This document shows, in pieces, positions 4,390-56,061 of a stretch of 64,000 bases of DNA; positions within the stretch are counted from its first letter, which is position 1, and each line of letters begins with the position of its first letter. This stretch comes from Oceanispirochaeta sp. (lineage in GTDB: Bacteria; Spirochaetota; Spirochaetia; DSM-2461): positions 1,920,001 to 1,984,000 of the forward strand of contig CAXXOA010000002.1 in the NCBI GenBank assembly GCA_963666275.2, read 5' to 3'. The notes under the pieces were generated by a model. The model was not told where the DNA came from, searched no databases, and worked only from the letters and a program-made list of their open reading frames with translations. A program made the translations under genes and the position numbers.

Positions 4390-5787
4390 CTATTCTGCTT
4401 CTGCAGCCGTCTGGTCCGGTTCCATGCTGTTTGCCGCTTCCGCTCCGTCCTCAGGTTCTTCCGCTTCGGGAGTCACAAAGAGGCTCTCGTCAGGGAAGGT
4501 AAAATACATCTGGATGGGGTCGAAGAACTGGTCGGTAATGACAATTCTGTTCTCGATATACCGGCTGTCCACATGCAGAAGGGAGGCTCCGGAATCTCTG
4601 ATGGAATAGAGAAAATCCGCCACTTCTCCGCTGTCGAAATGAAATGTGATAACACCGTCGTAGCGGCTTTTTATCCTGGCATCCGGGAACATCTCGAAAG
4701 ACACCCGGCCGCTGTTGCCTGCGGAAACCGTCAGAACCTGCTGACTGATCAGAGCTGACTTGTCTATCCAGGTGAAACGTCCGGAGTTTTCAAACAGGAT
4801 CGTACCATAGGCCTGACTGGACATCTCGGGTCCTCTGTCGATAAATGCCTGGAGCAGTTCCTCCCGTCTTGTCCTTTCCGCCGCTATCACCTCATCCACG
4901 TCTTCGGACAGTTTGATAAAGGCTTCTGAAATTTCAAGACCCTCGTGTTTGTACTGAACAGAGATAAAGTTTTCATTGTTTATGGTGATTCTGAAAGAGG
5001 TTCCGGCAAAATCGTATCTGTTGGCACCGATCCTGGTTACACCGTCGAAGGTGCTCTGAACCGATCTTTCATCGGTATTCAGAGTGATTGTTCTGGCTTC
5101 CCTGTCAACAAAGAGGCCATAGTCGGGACGGAACTGTTTCAGATCTATCTGACGTCTTGTCAGCATATCCTGGAAGGATTCGGGCCGCCACTGGGAGGAA
5201 AAGAAATTTTCAAGCTGGGGGTCGGAAGTGTCTTTTTCATTCTGTACAACCATTTCCTGCTTGTCATTGAGGCTGTACACGGTCAGATAGGCATCAAAAG
5301 TATAGCCTTCCACACCGTCTCCGGTGAGAACCGTATACCAGTACCCCTCGAAGCGGCCCACTTCCACAAGATCACTCCGGCCCAGAACCTTGATCTCCTG
5401 ACCTTCCCTAAGCTTATAGACCCTTTCGGAAGAGGCATCGGGCTGCTCCCTCATGGGAAGGCTGGCCCTGTCGGTAAAGGCGTAGACCGAGGTCCACTCT
5501 TCATAATCCGCGGCAAACTCCTCGGCAGACGCGGCTTTTTCAAAAAACCTGACCCGCCAGGTAGGGAGTTCAAACCTGTCTTTGGTACCTTTGATCTGAA
5601 CAATATAGGAATGGCGGATCTGAGACTCCGAAAGAATATCCGTAATGGATCCCGTAGGGAGTCCCTCCTGGTCGCTCCAGAGAATGACACCGTGGCCTAT
5701 CCGGCGGTTACAGCCGGAGAGGGCGAGAGTCAGGGTTATGGTTAAAGTAAAAAGGAGAATTCTTCCGGTTTTTCTGTTCATACGCAT
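4390..5787 (-). CDS. SH3-domain lipoprotein
   Basis: Likely start 5787 (AGGAA RBS upstream); lipobox LALSGC; bacterial SH3-like segment LPMREQPD...VYKLREGQEIKVL...GYWYTV...GYTF. Confidence 0.75.
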   Translation of the reverse strand: MRMNRKTGRILLFTLTITLTLALSGCNRRIGHGVILWSDQEGLPTGSITDILSESQIRHSYIVQIKGTKDRFELPTWRVRFFEKAASAEEFAADYEEWTSVYAFTDRASLPMREQPDASSERVYKLREGQEIKVLGRSDLVEVGRFEGYWYTVLTGDGVEGYTFDAYLTVYSLNDKQEMVVQNEKDTSDPQLENFFSSQWRPESFQDMLTRRQIDLKQFRPDYGLFVDREARTITLNTDERSVQSTFDGVTRIGANRYDFAGTSFRITINNENFISVQYKHEGLEISEAFIKLSEDVDEVIAAERTRREELLQAFIDRGPEMSSQAYGTILFENSGRFTWIDKSALISQQVLTVSAGNSGRVSFEMFPDARIKSRYDGVITFHFDSGEVADFLYSIRDSGASLLHVDSRYIENRIVITDQFFDPIQMYFTFPDESLFVTPEAEEPEDGAEAANSMEPDQTAAEAE

Positions 5788-5835
5788 TTTAGCAATTCCT
5801 TCTGTCGGGGCTGCGGGTATCAGGGCTTCTATCCT

Positions 5836-5863
5836 GTGGAGGACGCAGATCTGCGTCCCGTAC
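5836..5863 (-). repeat. REP-like palindrome GTAC-GGGACGCAGATCTGCGTCC
   Basis: GGACGCAG-AT-CTGCGTCC palindrome; same family as the copies at 55891-56050. Confidence 0.7.
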
Positions 5864-5906
5864 AATATAAGTATTGCGGTATTTTACAGGGGGAAAGGGC
5901 CCTAGG

Positions 5907-7175
5907 TCAATGTTGCTGAAGCCGGGGCAGGCTGTCTATGATCACTGTCAGCAGGATCAGTCCGCCGCTGAGCACCGCCAGGGCAATACCGATTCCCCAC
6001 AGGTCTGCCATAACACCGCAGGAAAGAGCCGTCAGAGCCGTCAGGACTGTTTTCCACTGGGACTGAACAGACAGAACTGAAGTCAGGACGGAGTTGTCCA
6101 CCGCATCGGCCACGTACCCTGTCATCACTGGTTTTCTCATATTTTCGATGATATAGATAAGGATAAAGAAGAATACCGCCCCCGGTGAAAATCCGGTCCA
6201 GTAGAGTAGTCCGCTGACAAGTCCGGCTCCCAGGCCCAGTATGAGGGTTTTTTCCGCCAGCCGGGGAATCCTGATTCTTGTAAGAAGGGAGGAGTGGGCC
6301 GAAGCGGCGGAAGTGAGAAGGAAGATTCCGAAATAGAGAACTCCCACCAGCAAGGCAGTCCGTTCTTCCACGCTCCTGCGGGAAAAGAAGGGGAGCAGCA
6401 GGATCATGGTCACCATCATGGGCTGGATATAGTCCTTCATGGCTTTCAGATAAGCCGTATGAAGGGCGGAATTATGGATCAACCGGATATTCCGGGGAGA
6501 TTTCATCACTGCCAGAAACTGGAATAGCAGCCTTTTGAGGCGATCCAGGGTGCCGCAGGACGGACCCAGATCTCCGCACTCTTCTTCACCGCTTTTATCC
6601 ACAAAAGAGGGATAGGAGAGGATCAGGAAAAAATTGATGATATAGGGAATGACGGAAAAGAGAAAAACCGGATCGTAGCTTCCTGCATAAAAGACAATGG
6701 CTCCCGCCAGAAGGGAGGATACAGCCAGTCCGAACTGGGACCAGGCCCTGGTCCGGCTGTAATAATCGGCCATGAGATTTTTCATGCCCTTCTGGGTCAG
6801 GTATTCCTTGATCATTCCCTTATGGGTTCCCGAACGGAAAGCTTCTCCCACGCCGAAGAAGAAAAAAGCTCCCAGAAAAAGGCCGTAGCTTTCAGAGAAA
6901 AACAGCAGCAGGAAAGAGATTATATAGGCCACAAAAGAACCTGCCAGGGCCCGTTTTCTGCCGAATACATCCGCAGCGATGCCCGAAGGAATCTCAAGTA
7001 CATTGGTAGCGATCTCCTGAAGGGCATAGAGGCTTCCTATCGCGGTAAAGGAAAGGCCCTTGTCCCTGAGGAAGAGGATCAGGAAGGCTTCAAAGAATTT
7101 CAGGTTTTTCAGAAAACCGTAGGCACAGAATTTCCTGTACTGGGCGTTCCGGGGGAAGGGTGTTTTGGGCTGCAT
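5907..7175 (-). CDS. MFS transporter
   Basis: About 12 hydrophobic helices; motif A-like PSGIAADVFGRK. Confidence 0.85.
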   Translation of the reverse strand: MQPKTPFPRNAQYRKFCAYGFLKNLKFFEAFLILFLRDKGLSFTAIGSLYALQEIATNVLEIPSGIAADVFGRKRALAGSFVAYIISFLLLFFSESYGLFLGAFFFFGVGEAFRSGTHKGMIKEYLTQKGMKNLMADYYSRTRAWSQFGLAVSSLLAGAIVFYAGSYDPVFLFSVIPYIINFFLILSYPSFVDKSGEEECGDLGPSCGTLDRLKRLLFQFLAVMKSPRNIRLIHNSALHTAYLKAMKDYIQPMMVTMILLLPFFSRRSVEERTALLVGVLYFGIFLLTSAASAHSSLLTRIRIPRLAEKTLILGLGAGLVSGLLYWTGFSPGAVFFFILIYIIENMRKPVMTGYVADAVDNSVLTSVLSVQSQWKTVLTALTALSCGVMADLWGIGIALAVLSGGLILLTVIIDSLPRLQQH

Positions 7176-7349
7176 AGGGGTATTATACGTTCAGCCCGAT
7201 CTTGTAGGCAAGAGGTTTTACAGCTTCCGGACACACAGAATAACATAAATGCGGCAGCATAGGATTTCTCCAGTGATATCTAAGACGGGAAAACTCTGAT
7301 GGCTTCGGATCTATCTGGAGCAGGTATTTTGGATTGGTATGGTTCTTAT

Positions 7350-7727
7350 TTACATAACCTTGATAAGCAGAGAAATAAATCCACCCAGCATTGTAATGAA
7401 AATGGCTGTTAAAAAGCTGTAAACACGGTTGAATCTTTTCTCTACACCTTCGAATCTCAGATTCATATAAGATTGCATATCGGTAAACCGTTTATCCATG
7501 GATTGAAAACGTTTATCAGACTGATCCATCATCATTTCAAGCTTATCATTCTGAAATTTCAGCTGCTGCTCAATCGTAACAATCCGTTCCATCAGCTCGA
7601 GAGAGGTCTTCTCCGTTCTTTCCGGGAAGAGGAGTATATTCTGCTCCCTTATCCATTGACCGATATGATTTTTTACATAGCTCCCTATCTGTTCCAGCTG
7701 ATTCTGGTCCACCTGCGGTTCTCCCAT
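7350..7727 (-). CDS. Small coiled-coil protein with C-terminal membrane anchor (DUF1640/Bdr/CCDC90-like), paralog 1
   Basis: Repeated DKRF/EKRF heptads, C-terminal hydrophobic helix, AAGGAG RBS; paralog at 13432-13782. Confidence 0.75.
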   Translation of the reverse strand: MGEPQVDQNQLEQIGSYVKNHIGQWIREQNILLFPERTEKTSLELMERIVTIEQQLKFQNDKLEMMMDQSDKRFQSMDKRFTDMQSYMNLRFEGVEKRFNRVYSFLTAIFITMLGGFISLLIKVM

Positions 7728-8285: not shown

Positions 8286-8321
8286 CCCCGTAGAGACGCG
8301 ATAAATCGCGTCTCTACGGGG
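8286..8321. repeat. GTAG-type REP palindrome overlapping the comM stop codon
   Basis: Perfect 17-bp arms CCCCGTAGAGACGCGAT-AA-ATCGCGTCTCTACGGGG. Confidence 0.85.
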
Positions 8322-17343: not shown

Positions 17344-17757
17344 TTAGGGAATCAATGTCAGTAGAGCTTTTTGATAGTCTCTGAAATTTTTCAGTTTCTC
17401 TGTAAGAATTGTCCAGACAATTTTCCAGTCTATGCTGCGGTATTCATGAACCGCAATGTTACGGAACCCCACGGCACCAATCAGATCTTTTGCCAGAGAT
17501 GAAGAAATTATGCCATTTTGTTCCAGAGCCGTAAAAACTTCAGCCATGGTATTGATTCTGCTTTGTCCGTAATCCACCAGCACATGGAGCCCTGCGTCTA
17601 CAGACTGCTGAACAGCCCGTTCCAGGTTGAGAATGATAATATCCTGAATGTCGATGTCTTCTTCCAGCCGGGAGTAATCAAGAGGCTTTTTTTCTTCCAG
17701 GCGCTTAAGGCAACGGCCCAGGGATTCCAGTTTTGCCAGGAGTATTTCAGGTTCCAT
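17344..17757 (-). CDS. hepT: HepT-like HEPN ribonuclease toxin (DUF86)
   Basis: RNIAVHEY (RX4HXY) motif; overlaps the upstream MNT gene. Confidence 0.9.
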   Translation of the reverse strand: MEPEILLAKLESLGRCLKRLEEKKPLDYSRLEEDIDIQDIIILNLERAVQQSVDAGLHVLVDYGQSRINTMAEVFTALEQNGIISSSLAKDLIGAVGFRNIAVHEYRSIDWKIVWTILTEKLKNFRDYQKALLTLIP

Positions 17758-18148
17758 GGAGGCTTTTCTCAATCCTTTTTTTCTGCATTTCCATCAATTG
17801 GGGCATAAAATCCGTGCGGAAGTCTATAGCTTTAATCAAGTGTTCCGCCAGTTCCCGGGAATTCCCTTTTATCCTGATACCCTTTGTCAAAATCTTATAG
17901 TGGATGACTCCTTCCGCTTTGTTCAGATCTATCAGGTCTATATCCCTTGTCAGCAGGATCTGGAGTTCTGCTGACATATTCAGAATAGTCCTGGAATCCA
18001 GTTCTTTAAAGGAGATAATCGCAATGTCAATATCACTGGCCGGGCCGAGAGCATCTTCTGCTGCGGATCCGAAGAGTAAGACTGAGGTTATGTCTTCTTT
18101 TGGGCTGAAGTAGCTTGTCAGGTGTTTGATAATCCGCTGCCGGTTCAT
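17747..18148 (-). CDS. mntA: MntA-like minimal nucleotidyltransferase antitoxin
   Basis: LFGS-X10-DID (GSAAEDALGPASDIDI) plus third Asp in IDLIDL; paired with HEPN. Confidence 0.9.
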   Translation of the reverse strand: MNRQRIIKHLTSYFSPKEDITSVLLFGSAAEDALGPASDIDIAIISFKELDSRTILNMSAELQILLTRDIDLIDLNKAEGVIHYKILTKGIRIKGNSRELAEHLIKAIDFRTDFMPQLMEMQKKRIEKSLHGT

Positions 18149-18569: not shown

Positions 18570-18623
18570 ATGAACAAAGAATTAATCATACTTGAGCAGA
18601 TACAAAATAATCCTCATTTTAAC
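18570..18623 (+). pseudogene. 5' fragment of wHTH regulator (copy A), truncated by a REP
   Basis: MNKELIILEQIQNNPH matches the start of 18668-19207, then runs into a CCCTCTCCCCCGGCCCCTCTCCC REP. Confidence 0.85.
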
Positions 18624-18658
18624 CCTCTCCCCCGGCCCCTCTCCCAGAGGGCGAGGGG
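18621..18658 (+). repeat. CCCTC-type REP
   Basis: AACCCTCTCCCCCGGCCCCTCTCCCAGAGGGCGAGGGG. Confidence 0.85.
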
Positions 18659-18667
18659 TGTGTAGTT

Positions 18668-19207
18668 ATGGATAAAGAACTGATTATTCTTGAACAAATT
18701 CAAAACAATCCTCATGTTAACCAGAGGGACCTGGCTACGGTTACTAAGGCGTCCCTTGGGATGACTAATGCTATTCTGAAGCGGTTTGCTGAGAAAGGGC
18801 TGATTACGATTAAGAAGATAAATAATCGGAATATCCGTTATGCTTTGACGGCGGAAGGGATGGAAGAGATTAATCGGCGGTCCTGGGGGTATTTTAAACG
18901 GACTATTAAGAATGTGGTGGATTATAAAGATGCTATCAGTGAAGTGATACGTCAGGCTAAAGAAAACGGATATAAAGGTATCCAGTTGGTTGGCTCCAGT
19001 GATTTTGATTTTATTGTGGAACATCAGTGTTACAAAATCGGTATTGATTTTAAATGTATAGAAGGTTTTGAAGACTCTGCTTCGGACGGTGGTATTCTGC
19101 ATGGAACTGAAGGCTGGTATAGCTTTGTTGCGGAAACCTTGGATACCAGGTCGTTTCAAGAAGAACAATCCGATGAGTTTTATCTGAAACGACTCATTTT
19201 GGGATAG
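18668..19207 (+). CDS. Winged-helix (MarR-like, EPS-associated) transcriptional regulator, intact copy B
   Basis: QRDLA...ASLGMTNAILKRFAEKGLI...YALT.EG wHTH; upstream of the polysaccharide locus. Confidence 0.88.
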   Translation: MDKELIILEQIQNNPHVNQRDLATVTKASLGMTNAILKRFAEKGLITIKKINNRNIRYALTAEGMEEINRRSWGYFKRTIKNVVDYKDAISEVIRQAKENGYKGIQLVGSSDFDFIVEHQCYKIGIDFKCIEGFEDSASDGGILHGTEGWYSFVAETLDTRSFQEEQSDEFYLKRLILG

Positions 19208-19249
19208 ATTCCTGATTCTTATGAATTAGAATTATATCAGAGGTAGTTT

Positions 19250-19486
19250 ATGCATACTTTGAAGATTAAAGTTAAAGACAGCGTTTATGATAAAGTTCAG
19301 TATTTTCTTGAGAATTTACCCAAGGATGATGTTGAGGTTGTCTCTGATGATATAGTTTCTGATTCCAGCGAGAGTATTGCAACGACTGGTTATGGAAAAG
19401 CATTTATTAAAAAGTGGTCTGGAATCATTTCTGAAGACAGCGTTGATTTTTCCAGAATTGATTATTTGTCAGAAAAATATAAGTGA
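19250..19486 (+). CDS. Putative VapB-like antitoxin
   Basis: 78 aa; TGA stop overlaps the ATG of the PIN gene; C-terminal YLSEKYK typical of antitoxins of this PIN class. Confidence 0.7.
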   Translation: MHTLKIKVKDSVYDKVQYFLENLPKDDVEVVSDDIVSDSSESIATTGYGKAFIKKWSGIISEDSVDFSRIDYLSEKYK

Positions 19487-19893
19487 TGAGAGTCCTTTTT
19501 GATACGAATATAATCCTGGATGTTCTGTTAAAACGGAAAGCATTTTATGATGACTCATGCAGGTTGTTTGAACTAGTTGATTGTGGGAGTTTTGAGGCTT
19601 ATTGTACTGCCAGTTCAGTTACAGACTTGTTTTATATTGTAAGAAAAGAAGTCGGACGGGATAAGACTGTTTTAATGTTGAAAGATTTGGTTCAGGTGGT
19701 ACCGGTTGTCGCTGTTGATCAAAATGTTGTAAATGAGGCTCTAGAATCGGATTTGAAAGACCTTGAAGATGCGGTTCAAACATTTTCTGCAATAAGAAAT
19801 GGGCTGGACTTTATTATCACACGAAATAAAAAAGATTTTAAAGGTGTTGATTTAGCTGTTTTAACACCGGAAGAAGTTTTGAATAATAAATAA
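19486..19893 (+). CDS. PIN-domain (VapC-like) toxin
   Basis: FDTNIILD, DLEDAVQ, IITRNKKDF. Confidence 0.9.
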   Translation: MRVLFDTNIILDVLLKRKAFYDDSCRLFELVDCGSFEAYCTASSVTDLFYIVRKEVGRDKTVLMLKDLVQVVPVVAVDQNVVNEALESDLKDLEDAVQTFSAIRNGLDFIITRNKKDFKGVDLAVLTPEEVLNNK

Positions 19894-19903
19894 TCCTCAT
19901 GTT

Positions 19904-19946
19904 AACCCTCACCCCCTCAATCCCCCTCTCCCAGGAGGAGAAGGGG
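19904..19946 (+). repeat. CCCTC-type REP preceded by a 19-bp regulator-gene fragment (19888-19906)
   Basis: AAATAATCCTCATGTTAAC-CCTCACCCCCTCAATCCCCCTCTCCC...GAAGGGG. Confidence 0.8.
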
Positions 19947-20108
19947 AGGAATGTAGAGGATTCTTTTGACATGGATAAAGAACTGATTATTCTTGAGCAG
20001 ATACAAAATAATCCTCATGTTAATCAAAGGGATCTGGCTACTGTTACTAGAGCATATTTGGGTATGGCCAATGCGATTTTGAAGCGGTTTGCTGAGAAAG
20101 GGCTGATT

Positions 20109-20336
20109 CGGCCTTTGCTCGCAATTTATTGCGGGCAAGTCAAACGTGCCGCATTGCGGCGACCTATACCGAACAAGGTTCTCTGAGCTTGCTCAGAGGT
20201 TCTTATACGGCCTTTGCTCGCTAGCGAGCATAGCATAAATGCCACGATAGTGGCGACCTCGAGATCGTTCCTCACTTCGTTCCGGTACGACTCGGACTCG
20301 AACAAGGTTCTTCGAGCTTGCTCGAAGGTTCTTATT
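20109..20336 (+). mobile_element. Two tandem structured mini-elements (99 nt + 129 nt)
   Basis: Absent from intact copy B; each CGGC-hairpin-hairpin-CGAAC-hairpin-GTTCTTAT(A/T); inserted after ATT. Confidence 0.8.
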
Positions 20337-20424
20337 ACTATCAAGAAGATTAATAATCGGAATATCCGCTATGCTTTGACGGCGAAAGGGATGGAAGAGA
20401 TTAATCAGCGGTCCTGGGGATATT

Positions 20425-20623
20425 CGGCTTTGCTCTCAATTTATTGTGAGCAAGTCATATGTGCCGCAAAGCGGCGACCACTACCGAACAAGGTTCTTCA
20501 AGCTTGCTTGAAGGTTCTTATTCGGCTTTTGCAGACTATTTATAGTTTGCAATTGTTATGAGTCGCTTAAGCGACCTCCTTAACCGAACATCAGGAATCC
20601 ATAATTATTGGATTCCTGATATT
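20425..20623 (+). mobile_element. Two tandem structured mini-elements (98 nt + 101 nt)
   Basis: Absent from copy B; same architecture; inserted after TATT, each ending in TATT. Confidence 0.8.
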
Positions 20624-20913
20624 TTAAGCGGACTATTAAGAATGTGGTGGATTATAAAGATGCTATCAGCGAGGTGATACGCTAGGCTAAAGCTGATGGG
20701 TATGAAGGGATTGCTCTTGTTGGAGAGAGTGACTTTGAGTTTATTGTTGAGCATCAGTGTTATAAAATGAATATTCCATATAAATTTATAGAGAATCCAG
20801 AGGGTAACTCTATAAAGGGATGGTACAGGTTCATTGCTGAATCTGCACCATCCGAATCTCTGAAGAGAGAACTGAATAATAAGTTCAACTTAAAAAGATT
20901 AATTGTTAGTTGA

Positions 20914-21198
20914 AGTGATTTTGATTTTATTAGGCAAATGCTCGCAATTTATTGCGAGTAAATCATAATTGCCGCTTTGGGGCGGTCATGACTTAACAAG
21001 GTTCTTCGAGCTTGCTCGGCGGTTCTTATCATTGAGCATCTTTGCTACAAGATGAGTATGCCATTTATTTCTTTGGAAGATCCTGAAGATGGTTTGTCAT
21101 CCGAACAATATCGATTTATTGCAGAGACTTTTGAAACTAATGGTTTGAAAGAAGAACTTGCTGATGAGTTTTTTTTAAAGAGGTCGATTATAGGGTAA
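20914..21198 (+). pseudogene. 3' fragment of wHTH regulator (copy E)
   Basis: SDFDFI-[insertion]-IEHLCYKM...YRFIAET...DEFFLKRSIIG* aligns to the C-terminus of copy B. Confidence 0.85.
20932..21030 (+). mobile_element. Fifth structured mini-element (99 nt)
   Basis: AGGC..TGCTCGCAAT-TT-ATTGCGAGTA..GCCGC..CTTAACAAGGTTCTTCGAGCTTGCTCGGCGGTTCTTATC, inserted after TATT. Confidence 0.78.
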
Positions 21199-21441
21199 TA
21201 TTCTTTAAATTATTATCCTGAATATTAGGGATATTATGATAAGTGAGGGGAATACTAAAAAAGTGAAAGGTTTATATTGTCAAATTATAGAAAAAATACT
21301 TTAAATTCATCACTTGAAGAGCTATCAGGTGATTGTCTTTTAAGAAGATTTTGAATTGGGAAAAATATTATCTAATTGTTGAAATATAATTTATTTTGAG
21401 ATATTTGAATATTTATAGAGAAGAAGGTAGGTGTAAAGGTT

Positions 21442-55811: not shown

Positions 55812-55888
55812 GGCAGGTATGGTATCAGATTTATGATTTTTGGGTCAGCCCTGACAGGCATATATTATGAGTTTTCCCGGGGGATTCT

Positions 55889-56050
55889 GAAGGGGACGCA
55901 GATCTGCGTCCCTTACGAGGAATTATCATGTTATAGGAGTTAGGTTTGCAGGGGTGTGAAGGGGATGCAGATCTGCGTCCCTTACGAGGTATTATCAAGT
56001 TATAGGAGTTAGGTGGGGGAAGTTCTGTGGGGGCCGCAGATCTGAAGCCC
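55889..56050 (-). repeat. Three-unit tandem REP array, 69-bp period
   Basis: GCAGATCTG core at 55898, 55967 and 56036; shared linker CTTACGAGG.ATTATCA.GTTATAGGAGTTAGGT. Confidence 0.85.
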
Positions 56051-56061
56051 ATCCATTGGGA

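Follow-up and report, generated by a model that had tools for sequence, protein, structure and literature searches.

Tiny gene-free hairpin elements at TA|T targets: five long members in a regulator locus of Oceanispirochaeta and a candidate route of movement as single-stranded DNA

The regulator locus and its five inserts

In this work, we have analysed a stretch of 64,000 nucleotides (the window) from the 5.27-Mb genome of Oceanispirochaeta sp., here called G000. In the leader of a polysaccharide cluster, the window carries one intact regulator gene, which also matches MarR_EPS weakly, under the cut-off of that model, and two damaged relatives that contain five short inserts. The features are as follows.

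18668..19207, + strand: regulator copy B, intact, a winged-helix gene (HTH_24); the empty allele
19971..20913, + strand: regulator copy A, a pseudogene with two insertion sites and a TAG at 20683-20685
20107..20205, + strand: copy 1 (c1), 99 nt, ends redefined at the A|T cut; left flank GCTGA
20172..20177, + strand: central AACAAG of copy 1, complementary to both junctions with one C.A mismatch (from sequence and circular fold)
20206..20334, + strand: copy 2 (c2), 129 nt, in tandem with copy 1; first bases TA; the host continues TTACT
20260..20295 (ends approximate), no strand assigned: nested extra hairpin in copy 2
20423..20520, + strand: copy 3 (c3), 98 nt; left flank GGATA
20521..20621, + strand: copy 4 (c4), 101 nt, in tandem with copy 3; variant core AACATC...GATA
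20914..21199 (ends approximate), + strand: fragment C, which contains copy 5 and represents the 3' half of a third regulator allele
20930..21028, + strand: copy 5 (c5), 99 nt, partly decayed; its TTAGG start pairs with an internal CTTAA
20301, 20487, 20587 (AACATC) and 20995 (start positions), + strand: equivalents of AACAAG in the other copies, from sequence

An earlier note on this DNA had described five copies on the same strand, and both the sequence and blastn bear it out, with the unit boundaries (TT to ...CTTA) now placed 2 nt further left. Its observation that removal of the inserts restores the regulator sequence at all three sites also holds: once c1+c2 and c3+c4 are excised in silico the sequence is colinear with intact copy B, and excision of c5 restores the frame of the third, partial regulator copy. 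The inserts of copy A amount to 228 nt in frame but containing a stop, and to 199 nt out of frame; since the pseudogene bears an independent TAG, they occupy redundant DNA. The suspicion of an assembly artefact could be put aside, as unitigs bridge the inserts: one of 1749 nt covers 18910-20658 with zero differences in three runs of one sample, possibly the source, and a second covers 20640-21440 without differences in one run of the same sample. No joints were seen in the contigs of the three runs.

Both blastn and the covariance model R1 find five copies in the whole of G000, all within 930 bp, to be set against about 91,600 TATW sites in the genome. Import of the leader from a copy-rich donor, together with tolerance in redundant alleles, is a plausible account of this clustering. 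A copy in the related genome G003 (L007) stands at the homologue of the second window site. The right end of copy 4, GATA|TT, is the same as the host site GATA|TT (one case), and the c3-c4 pair may have entered via this end.

Remnants of the regulator seem to be piled up in the leader. A CCCTC-type hairpin repeat with about 30 genome copies is found at 18570-18658 and 19883-19945 of the window and at 840-940 of L007; twice it stands directly after the regulator motif AATCCTCAT(G/T)TTAA, leaving stubs of the regulator start, and in the G003 leader, too, repeats come after such a stub. A nucleotidyltransferase-HepT pair and a pair of a small ORF with a PIN gene (17344-18148 and 19250-19893), which are likely toxin-antitoxin modules, lie alongside the regulator copies and in between them. 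In the nested hairpin of copy 2 the GAA loop reads on the minus strand, and a free-standing relative of this hairpin occurs at C1:2461024-2461065 of G000.

Anatomy, fold and spread of the family

Comparison of the copies at the sequence level establishes their ends, their target, their stacking in tandem, the existence of empty sites and an asymmetry between the strands. Each unit consists of a start dinucleotide (mostly TT), a left arm, AA-C-AAG, a right hairpin and CTT-A. Most members form a single hairpin in the left arm; long-form units have two hairpins there, in a junction that TTCGG/CCGAA closes. Not all copies have the GTT/GTT inner loop in the right arm: it is missing in c4, L314 and L315. 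Thus, of the three covarying hairpins announced earlier the covariation stands, but three hairpins are not essential, most family members having two. As had been proposed, the units have the character of a non-autonomous mobile element without ORF or terminal inverted repeats, and target duplication is absent as well.

The earlier note had the insertions occur after ATT. Our comparisons place the cut at TA|T instead, with TT as the element's own sequence, for two reasons. In a search that allowed one mismatch, six of the 22 full copies in the highest-copy genome, G500, begin A|AT with a compensating internal AT in register, and others begin A|TA; and a tRNA-Arg site that is intact as TTATATCCA in L164 is split into TTA|TT... 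and ...CTTA|TATCCA in L139 and L155, an argument that uses the direct comparison of these loci. (An ARAGORN test of tRNA restoration, in which 1 of 99 arrays was restored with an imperfect boundary, was not used as evidence.) Since TT belongs to the element, the pairing of TT|CGG with CCGAA, and of TTAGG with CTTAA in copy 5, is correct as pairing but is mainly an internal stem rather than a reading of the target. The target approximates YTTA|TW: among the matches listed, the left flank has T at -3 in 57/77 and at -2 in 56/77 with A at -1 imposed, A at -1 in 93/118 when it is not imposed, and T-rich 3' flanks. In G500 a host T lies just 3' of the cut in 22/22 copies. The right end, CTTA|T, resembles the target, hence the tandem pairs, in agreement with the explanation first given for them.

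Some variants of this plan deserve mention. Ultra-short tandem units whose right arm is AACAAAC-TT-GTTTA are interleaved with full units at L115 4878-4998, L146 1-190 and L093 1070-1230. In G500, one subfamily occupies TA|TAAT sites (C1:29727, C2:4480, C6:80096, C11:18686, C12:6083 and 7483); it recreates TATAAT at both junctions and so may duplicate -10 boxes. We also considered whether left arms are copied from the host 3' flank; 4/68 had at least 7/10 identity, with a null mean of 0.9 and maximum of 5, and the idea was rejected in general. At L058 660-770 (a gene start) and L035 2980-3070 (a tRNA end) the left arms resemble the adjoining host sequence and may restore it after insertion, two cases that remain suggestive.

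Folded as circles, the + strands of the window copies gave z values of -4.7 (c1), -2.3 (c2), -5.0 (c3), -8.7 (c4) and -1.6 (c5) against 100 dinucleotide shuffles with DNA parameters; c2 and c5 are thus weak taken alone. For four of the five the predicted circular fold closes, and the join falls on the C.A mismatch that separates two helices. Over 11 long-form copies, the 13 pairs are 94.4% paired, four of them with two-sided changes, compared with 36-56% in slid controls; none of 500 shuffles was as high, which is not a probability because the copies are kin and the structure was taken from c1. An alignment of 54 short copies contains 36 two-sided cells against 10.3 in shuffles (0/500), with the reservation that these copies too are related to one another and that the pattern used to find them included the core. 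At the first variable pair of the left arm, the 109 units listed have T-A in 57 cases, A-T in 22, G-C in 21, C-G in six and other in three, counts obtained with an arm finder that favours paired starts.

Which strand folds? The two strands of the window copies fold within about 1 kcal/mol of each other (DNA parameters), and the G.T wobbles earlier invoked in favour of the + strand are not a valid argument within the window alone, since the C.A mismatch in the centre of the + strand becomes a G.T when the minus strand is read. The conclusion itself is supported by the family: GCGN(N)AGC mini-hairpins occur on the + strand in 42/109 units and on the minus strand in 0/109 among the matches listed, and in 13/20 and 0/20 in G500, while GNA-type triloops number 39 against 5 and paired GA steps 91 against 13 when the two strands of 184 arms are compared. 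Passages of PMC13037366 describe GCGN(N)AGC as an unusually stable DNA mini-hairpin. As these mini-hairpins are strand-specific and no reverse transcriptase was found in four carrier genomes, the active form is likely single-stranded DNA with the + strand folding. For the window copies, which have no GCGN(N)AGC themselves, we infer the same from the family data.

Our comparisons indicate that the window inserts (98-129 nt) belong, as long forms, to a widespread family of tiny mobile DNAs that measure 38-149 nt. Among the matches listed, this family comprises 109 units at 93 metagenome loci (38-149 nt, median 54), in tandem at 46/93. To arrive at these, 166 matches were reduced to 128 by leaving out 13 stemless loci (L051, L096, L192, L194-L203) and duplicates, and nine units too close to a contig end and ten lacking the left arm were then dropped; the arm is thus present in 109 of the 119 units examined among the matches listed. 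The conserved core AACAAGGTTCT..GGTTCTTAT occurs in at least 120 metagenome stretches and in 27 viral stretches, about a dozen of which have a stem by eye, and a narrow pattern of it gave two matches in a genome collection, one titled Sedimentibacter. Long and short forms are linked by a second covariance model (R2), built from the 54 short copies, all from outside the window, because it returns window copies as its sole matches in G000 (four, c4 being missed). Scanning for more copies, as had been suggested, thus yielded a family that extends to other genomes and metagenome loci. Long copies were found by R1 in two of 37 other genomes of the host's family, four in G003 and one in G025, and a DNA search added a sixth outside long copy in G010. 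In a phylum of small genomes, R2 matched 6/149, with 22 matches in G500 and matches in one of 39 relatives of G500. That assembly (825,412 nt in 12 contigs, maybe incomplete) holds 22 full copies and one degenerate one; no split or ORF-bearing copy was seen in all of it. The hosts of the family are unrelated.

Empty alleles are provided not only by copy B but also by the G000 orthologues of the L009 and L315 sites, where the insert is absent; at the L315 site, both flanks lie close together in eight other genomes of the genus. On the evidence of these alleles the elements are mobile.

Rfam returned no match to the family at the gathering threshold for the window, and only tRNAs for 15 family loci. 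Titles and abstract openings of published work, mainly outside subscription journals, contained no description of the family that we could find, and blastn against plasmids and phages gave no match. The 15 listed of 16 papers that contain the core 11-mer deal, to judge by their titles, with unrelated subjects. Of the pattern searches, the first viral pattern gave 0 matches; ATTCGG..CCGAACA..TCYTAT gave 12 viral stretches, none convincing as a copy, and matched 10/401 genomes of the phylum, roughly as often as the reversed-pattern control did. A long-gap viral scan gave 13 stretches, of which only L193 was retained as real, and a viral scan for the AAGAAT variant gave seven, none real. The class pattern matched 5/61 genomes against six control matches, and the exact left-arm pattern matched 0/201 small genomes.

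Target reading and the search for an enzyme

Save for the C.A mismatch, AACAAG is the complement of the target consensus, and the earlier note had proposed that base pairing chooses the site. This is partly upheld. In G500, pairing of the 3' flank with the bases before the C amounts to 48 against 33.7 in shuffles (p = 0.0018, n = 20, kin copies), whereas the metagenome copies listed give 116 against 110.2 (p = 0.14, n = 63). Moreover, the host T at +1 is kept even opposite a T (15/20 G500 copies are unpaired there) and is therefore not set by pairing. Pairing may thus bias the choice of target, yet it is insufficient alone as an explanation.

No transposase family recurs at the copies when 637 ORFs from the 129 loci listed are clustered; those clusters that do recur represent orthologous neighbourhoods, phage-type recombinases and housekeeping genes. 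When 94 neighbour ORFs were scanned against Pfam, two plasmid relaxases, one Y1-like gene and one reverse transcriptase also came up. We judge the Y1-like gene (L124), which has a single copy upstream and a GTAG repeat of its own, to be incidental, and likewise the reverse transcriptase at L099. At the latter locus (5676-7400), the reverse transcriptase has 339 aa, a pair of repeats lies close by and a small ORF lies upstream, an arrangement that we take to resemble a diversity-generating retroelement.

A Y1/RAYT transposase flanked by the motif of the copies was sought, following the earlier note, and none was found: none of the seven Y1 genes of G000 has a model match or the motif nearby, and no Y1 was matched in G500, whose assembly may be incomplete. 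Y2 was seen in 0/5 genomes including G500, in a search whose control was silent too; reverse transcriptases were found in none of G500, G552, G487 and G486. In the 114 ORFs scanned of the 836 in G500 there is no transposase. Its only recognisable recombinase is one Xer-like gene, and its GIY-YIG match is a single long frame of 496 aa. The core motif was not found beside Xer-like genes. An integron integrase over the cut-off is present in the long-form carriers G000, G003 and G025, against 0/14 controls, and is under the cut-off or absent in the carriers G486, G487 and G500. G000 has an integron in its chromosome, at C1:1034000-1064710, on another contig, 1-Mb-scale away; its integrase is complete, its cassettes extend over about 30 kb, and model R1 finds no element copies in the array. 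Several of the cassettes are interrupted by near-identical ORFs of 426-440 aa, opposite in orientation to the cassettes, which by eye look like group II intron reverse transcriptases.

The orientation of the copies has no bias with respect to replication, as judged from local GC skew as a proxy (50 loci, split 19 vs 31, and G500, split 10 vs 11), or with respect to gene direction (21 vs 29, p = 0.32).

A candidate mechanism and its rivals

With moderate confidence, we propose that these gene-free elements are moved in trans by a peel-and-paste enzyme of the HUH type, via a closed dumbbell circle of single-stranded DNA, into TA|T. The + strand would fold, and the central AACAAG would pair first with the left junction (host YTA and element TT) and in turn with the right one (element CTTA and host TW). 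This swap of partners, with a cut beside the C.A mismatch, would release a small closed circle and leave the host exactly resealed; a strand-transfer enzyme provided in trans would rejoin the circle into a host TA|T, and the target-like right end would let new copies, or whole dimers, settle beside old ones. We infer the excision as a closed circle and the reinsertion at TA|T from the ends and the fold; the identity of the enzyme is our guess. HUH enzymes are favoured because precise, duplication-free excision of strand-specific hairpin DNA is the chemistry of that group, as far as it is set out in parts of PMC5027513, PMC6006769, PMC8266576, PMC7290912 and PMC3337134. Thus, of the earlier assignment to a non-autonomous HUH-type element, the first half is supported and the second unproven. 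Against an HUH-type enzyme stand the failure to find one, the lack of strand bias, the plain antiparallel stem at the junctions and the conserved host T 3' of the cut. No excised circle or circle joint was seen in the contigs of the sample.

The nearest known systems show how far the comparison carries. IS200/IS605 elements are excised precisely as single-stranded circles, and their ends-only derivatives are mobilised in trans, in the passages of PMC5027513 and PMC7290912, respectively, that deal with them. Like these derivatives (PATEs), the family has strand-specific hairpins, a short AT-rich target and neither terminal inverted repeats nor target duplication; precise excision, implied here by the empty alleles, and movement in trans are further points in common. 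In contrast to IS200/IS605, one central segment serves both ends by a plain antiparallel stem with a C.A mismatch, whereas Y1 guides are read by cross-pairing (portions of PMC8266576 and PMC6006769); copy 4 compensates in the antiparallel register (AG/CT to TC/GA). The family also differs in that no parent IS with these ends was found (all of G500 and the seven Y1 genes of G000, a limited sample), in lacking the lagging-strand preference reported for IS200/IS605 (GC-skew proxy; 50 loci and 21 G500 sites), and in its units down to 38 nt, in tandem arrays. With REP, REPIN and BIME sequences and their RAYTs it shares small non-coding hairpins of single-stranded DNA that are mostly intergenic, clustered and expanded in lineage-restricted bursts. 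REP hairpins, in the relevant part of PMC8266576, have a GTAG/GTGG foot and cleavage at CT or CA; the family has no such foot, is cut at TA|T and stacks head to tail rather than in inverted doublets, and no motif-flanked RAYT was found, the one Y1-like ORF among 94 neighbours being that at L124.

Two further systems may be compared. IMEX such as CTX phage insert at dif-like attachment sites; they likewise have a folded single-stranded attP donor and no enzyme of their own, but the family's units are dispersed over many sites. IS91/ISCR elements use a Y2 transposase and a GAAC/CAAG target; the target here is TA|T, and the control of the Y2 search (0/5 genomes) was silent. The family behaves as a non-autonomous single-stranded DNA element of the REP/PATE type with the logic of an empty integron cassette, and departs from each in a defining respect.

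A rather unlikely alternative is that the units are ORF-less cassette circles moved by a tyrosine recombinase (an integron integrase as at attG, or the host Xer as for CTX phage), which would exchange one strand and rely on replication to place them in double-stranded TA|T sites. As in attC cassettes, an AAC segment inside the unit pairs with its start, circularisation recreates the site, and arrays run head to tail; integrases are present in the three long-form carriers named above, and an Xer-like gene is the only recombinase recognised in G500. Insertion at attG requires only the three-base motif GWT and has no leading/lagging bias, according to a part of 10.1101/2022.09.11.507474, and no strand bias is seen here either. 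The core, however, is A|TW and not G|TT or G|WT, with ATT for GTT in 10/11 long copies (L314 has GTT); the AAC is not invariant, varying in G500 to ATC, TAC and TTC; and no ORF-bearing unit was seen. The polarity is reversed too: in attC the bottom strand is the folding one, and GCGNAGC lies on the AAC...ATT strand in the family, but its complement lies on the cassette strand in the resident attC-like spacers of G000, which end in GTT. Copies also occur in G486, G487 and G500 without an integrase over the cut-off, the G000 integron array has none, and Xer-like genes lack an adjoining core motif.

A further reading, which we hold to be unlikely, would make the units minimal DNA parasites that cross phyla, down to 38 nt, as closed single-stranded dumbbells served by a universal host enzyme (an Xer-like recombinase or a type IA topoisomerase), with the six-base segment partly choosing the target. 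Decidedly unlikely, in our view, is a universal host enzyme that breaks and rejoins strands of the folded element and of melted AT-rich targets such as -10 boxes. Type IA topoisomerases, one such enzyme, break and rejoin single DNA strands. The unrelated hosts, the absence of a common neighbouring gene, the failure to find known transposases in G500 and the TA|TAAT subfamily with T-rich 3' flanks are all consistent with it. Against it, copies are patchy (22 in G500, matches in 1/39 relatives and 6/149 genomes of the phylum), so that a visiting enzyme fits at least as well; we found no precedent in the literature, and G500 is possibly incomplete.

Spread through a structured RNA (a small circular or retro-element) followed by reverse transcription, an RNA route as in the other option of the earlier note, a structured RNA insertion, is very improbable. 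In its favour are the fold, which is a closed rod, the occurrence of some GNRA and CUUG loops, and folding energies that are similar for RNA, but GNA triloops and GCGN(N)AGC predominate in a strand-specific manner, the four carriers searched lack a reverse transcriptase, Rfam has no match, target duplication is absent and orientation is unrelated to transcription. That the units are immobile, being hairpins duplicated locally or regulatory leaders in the polysaccharide locus, is scarcely credible and, through the empty alleles, largely refuted: against the confinement of the G000 copies to one leader and the position of L007 at the homologous G003 site stand a precisely interrupted coding sequence, unrelated sites, empty orthologues in sister genomes and occurrence in both gene orientations.

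What could be gained from the family? It offers a way to test how hairpin repeats of this small size spread when they have no transposase themselves: its ends, folding strand and target are fixed to the base, natural compensatory variants are available, and an oligonucleotide of 40-60 nt could be used as bait for the enzyme. If the central six bases steer insertion, the result would be a very small, scar-free and partly programmable insertion module. Copies disrupt genes, tRNA genes and TATAAT-like sites. To this family the window locus contributes the long form, the boundary and the strand. The window also holds two more REP-like repeat families (D6, D18), at 8294, 45976, 52471, 54427, 54581, 59830 and 59976; 5831 and 55884-56054.
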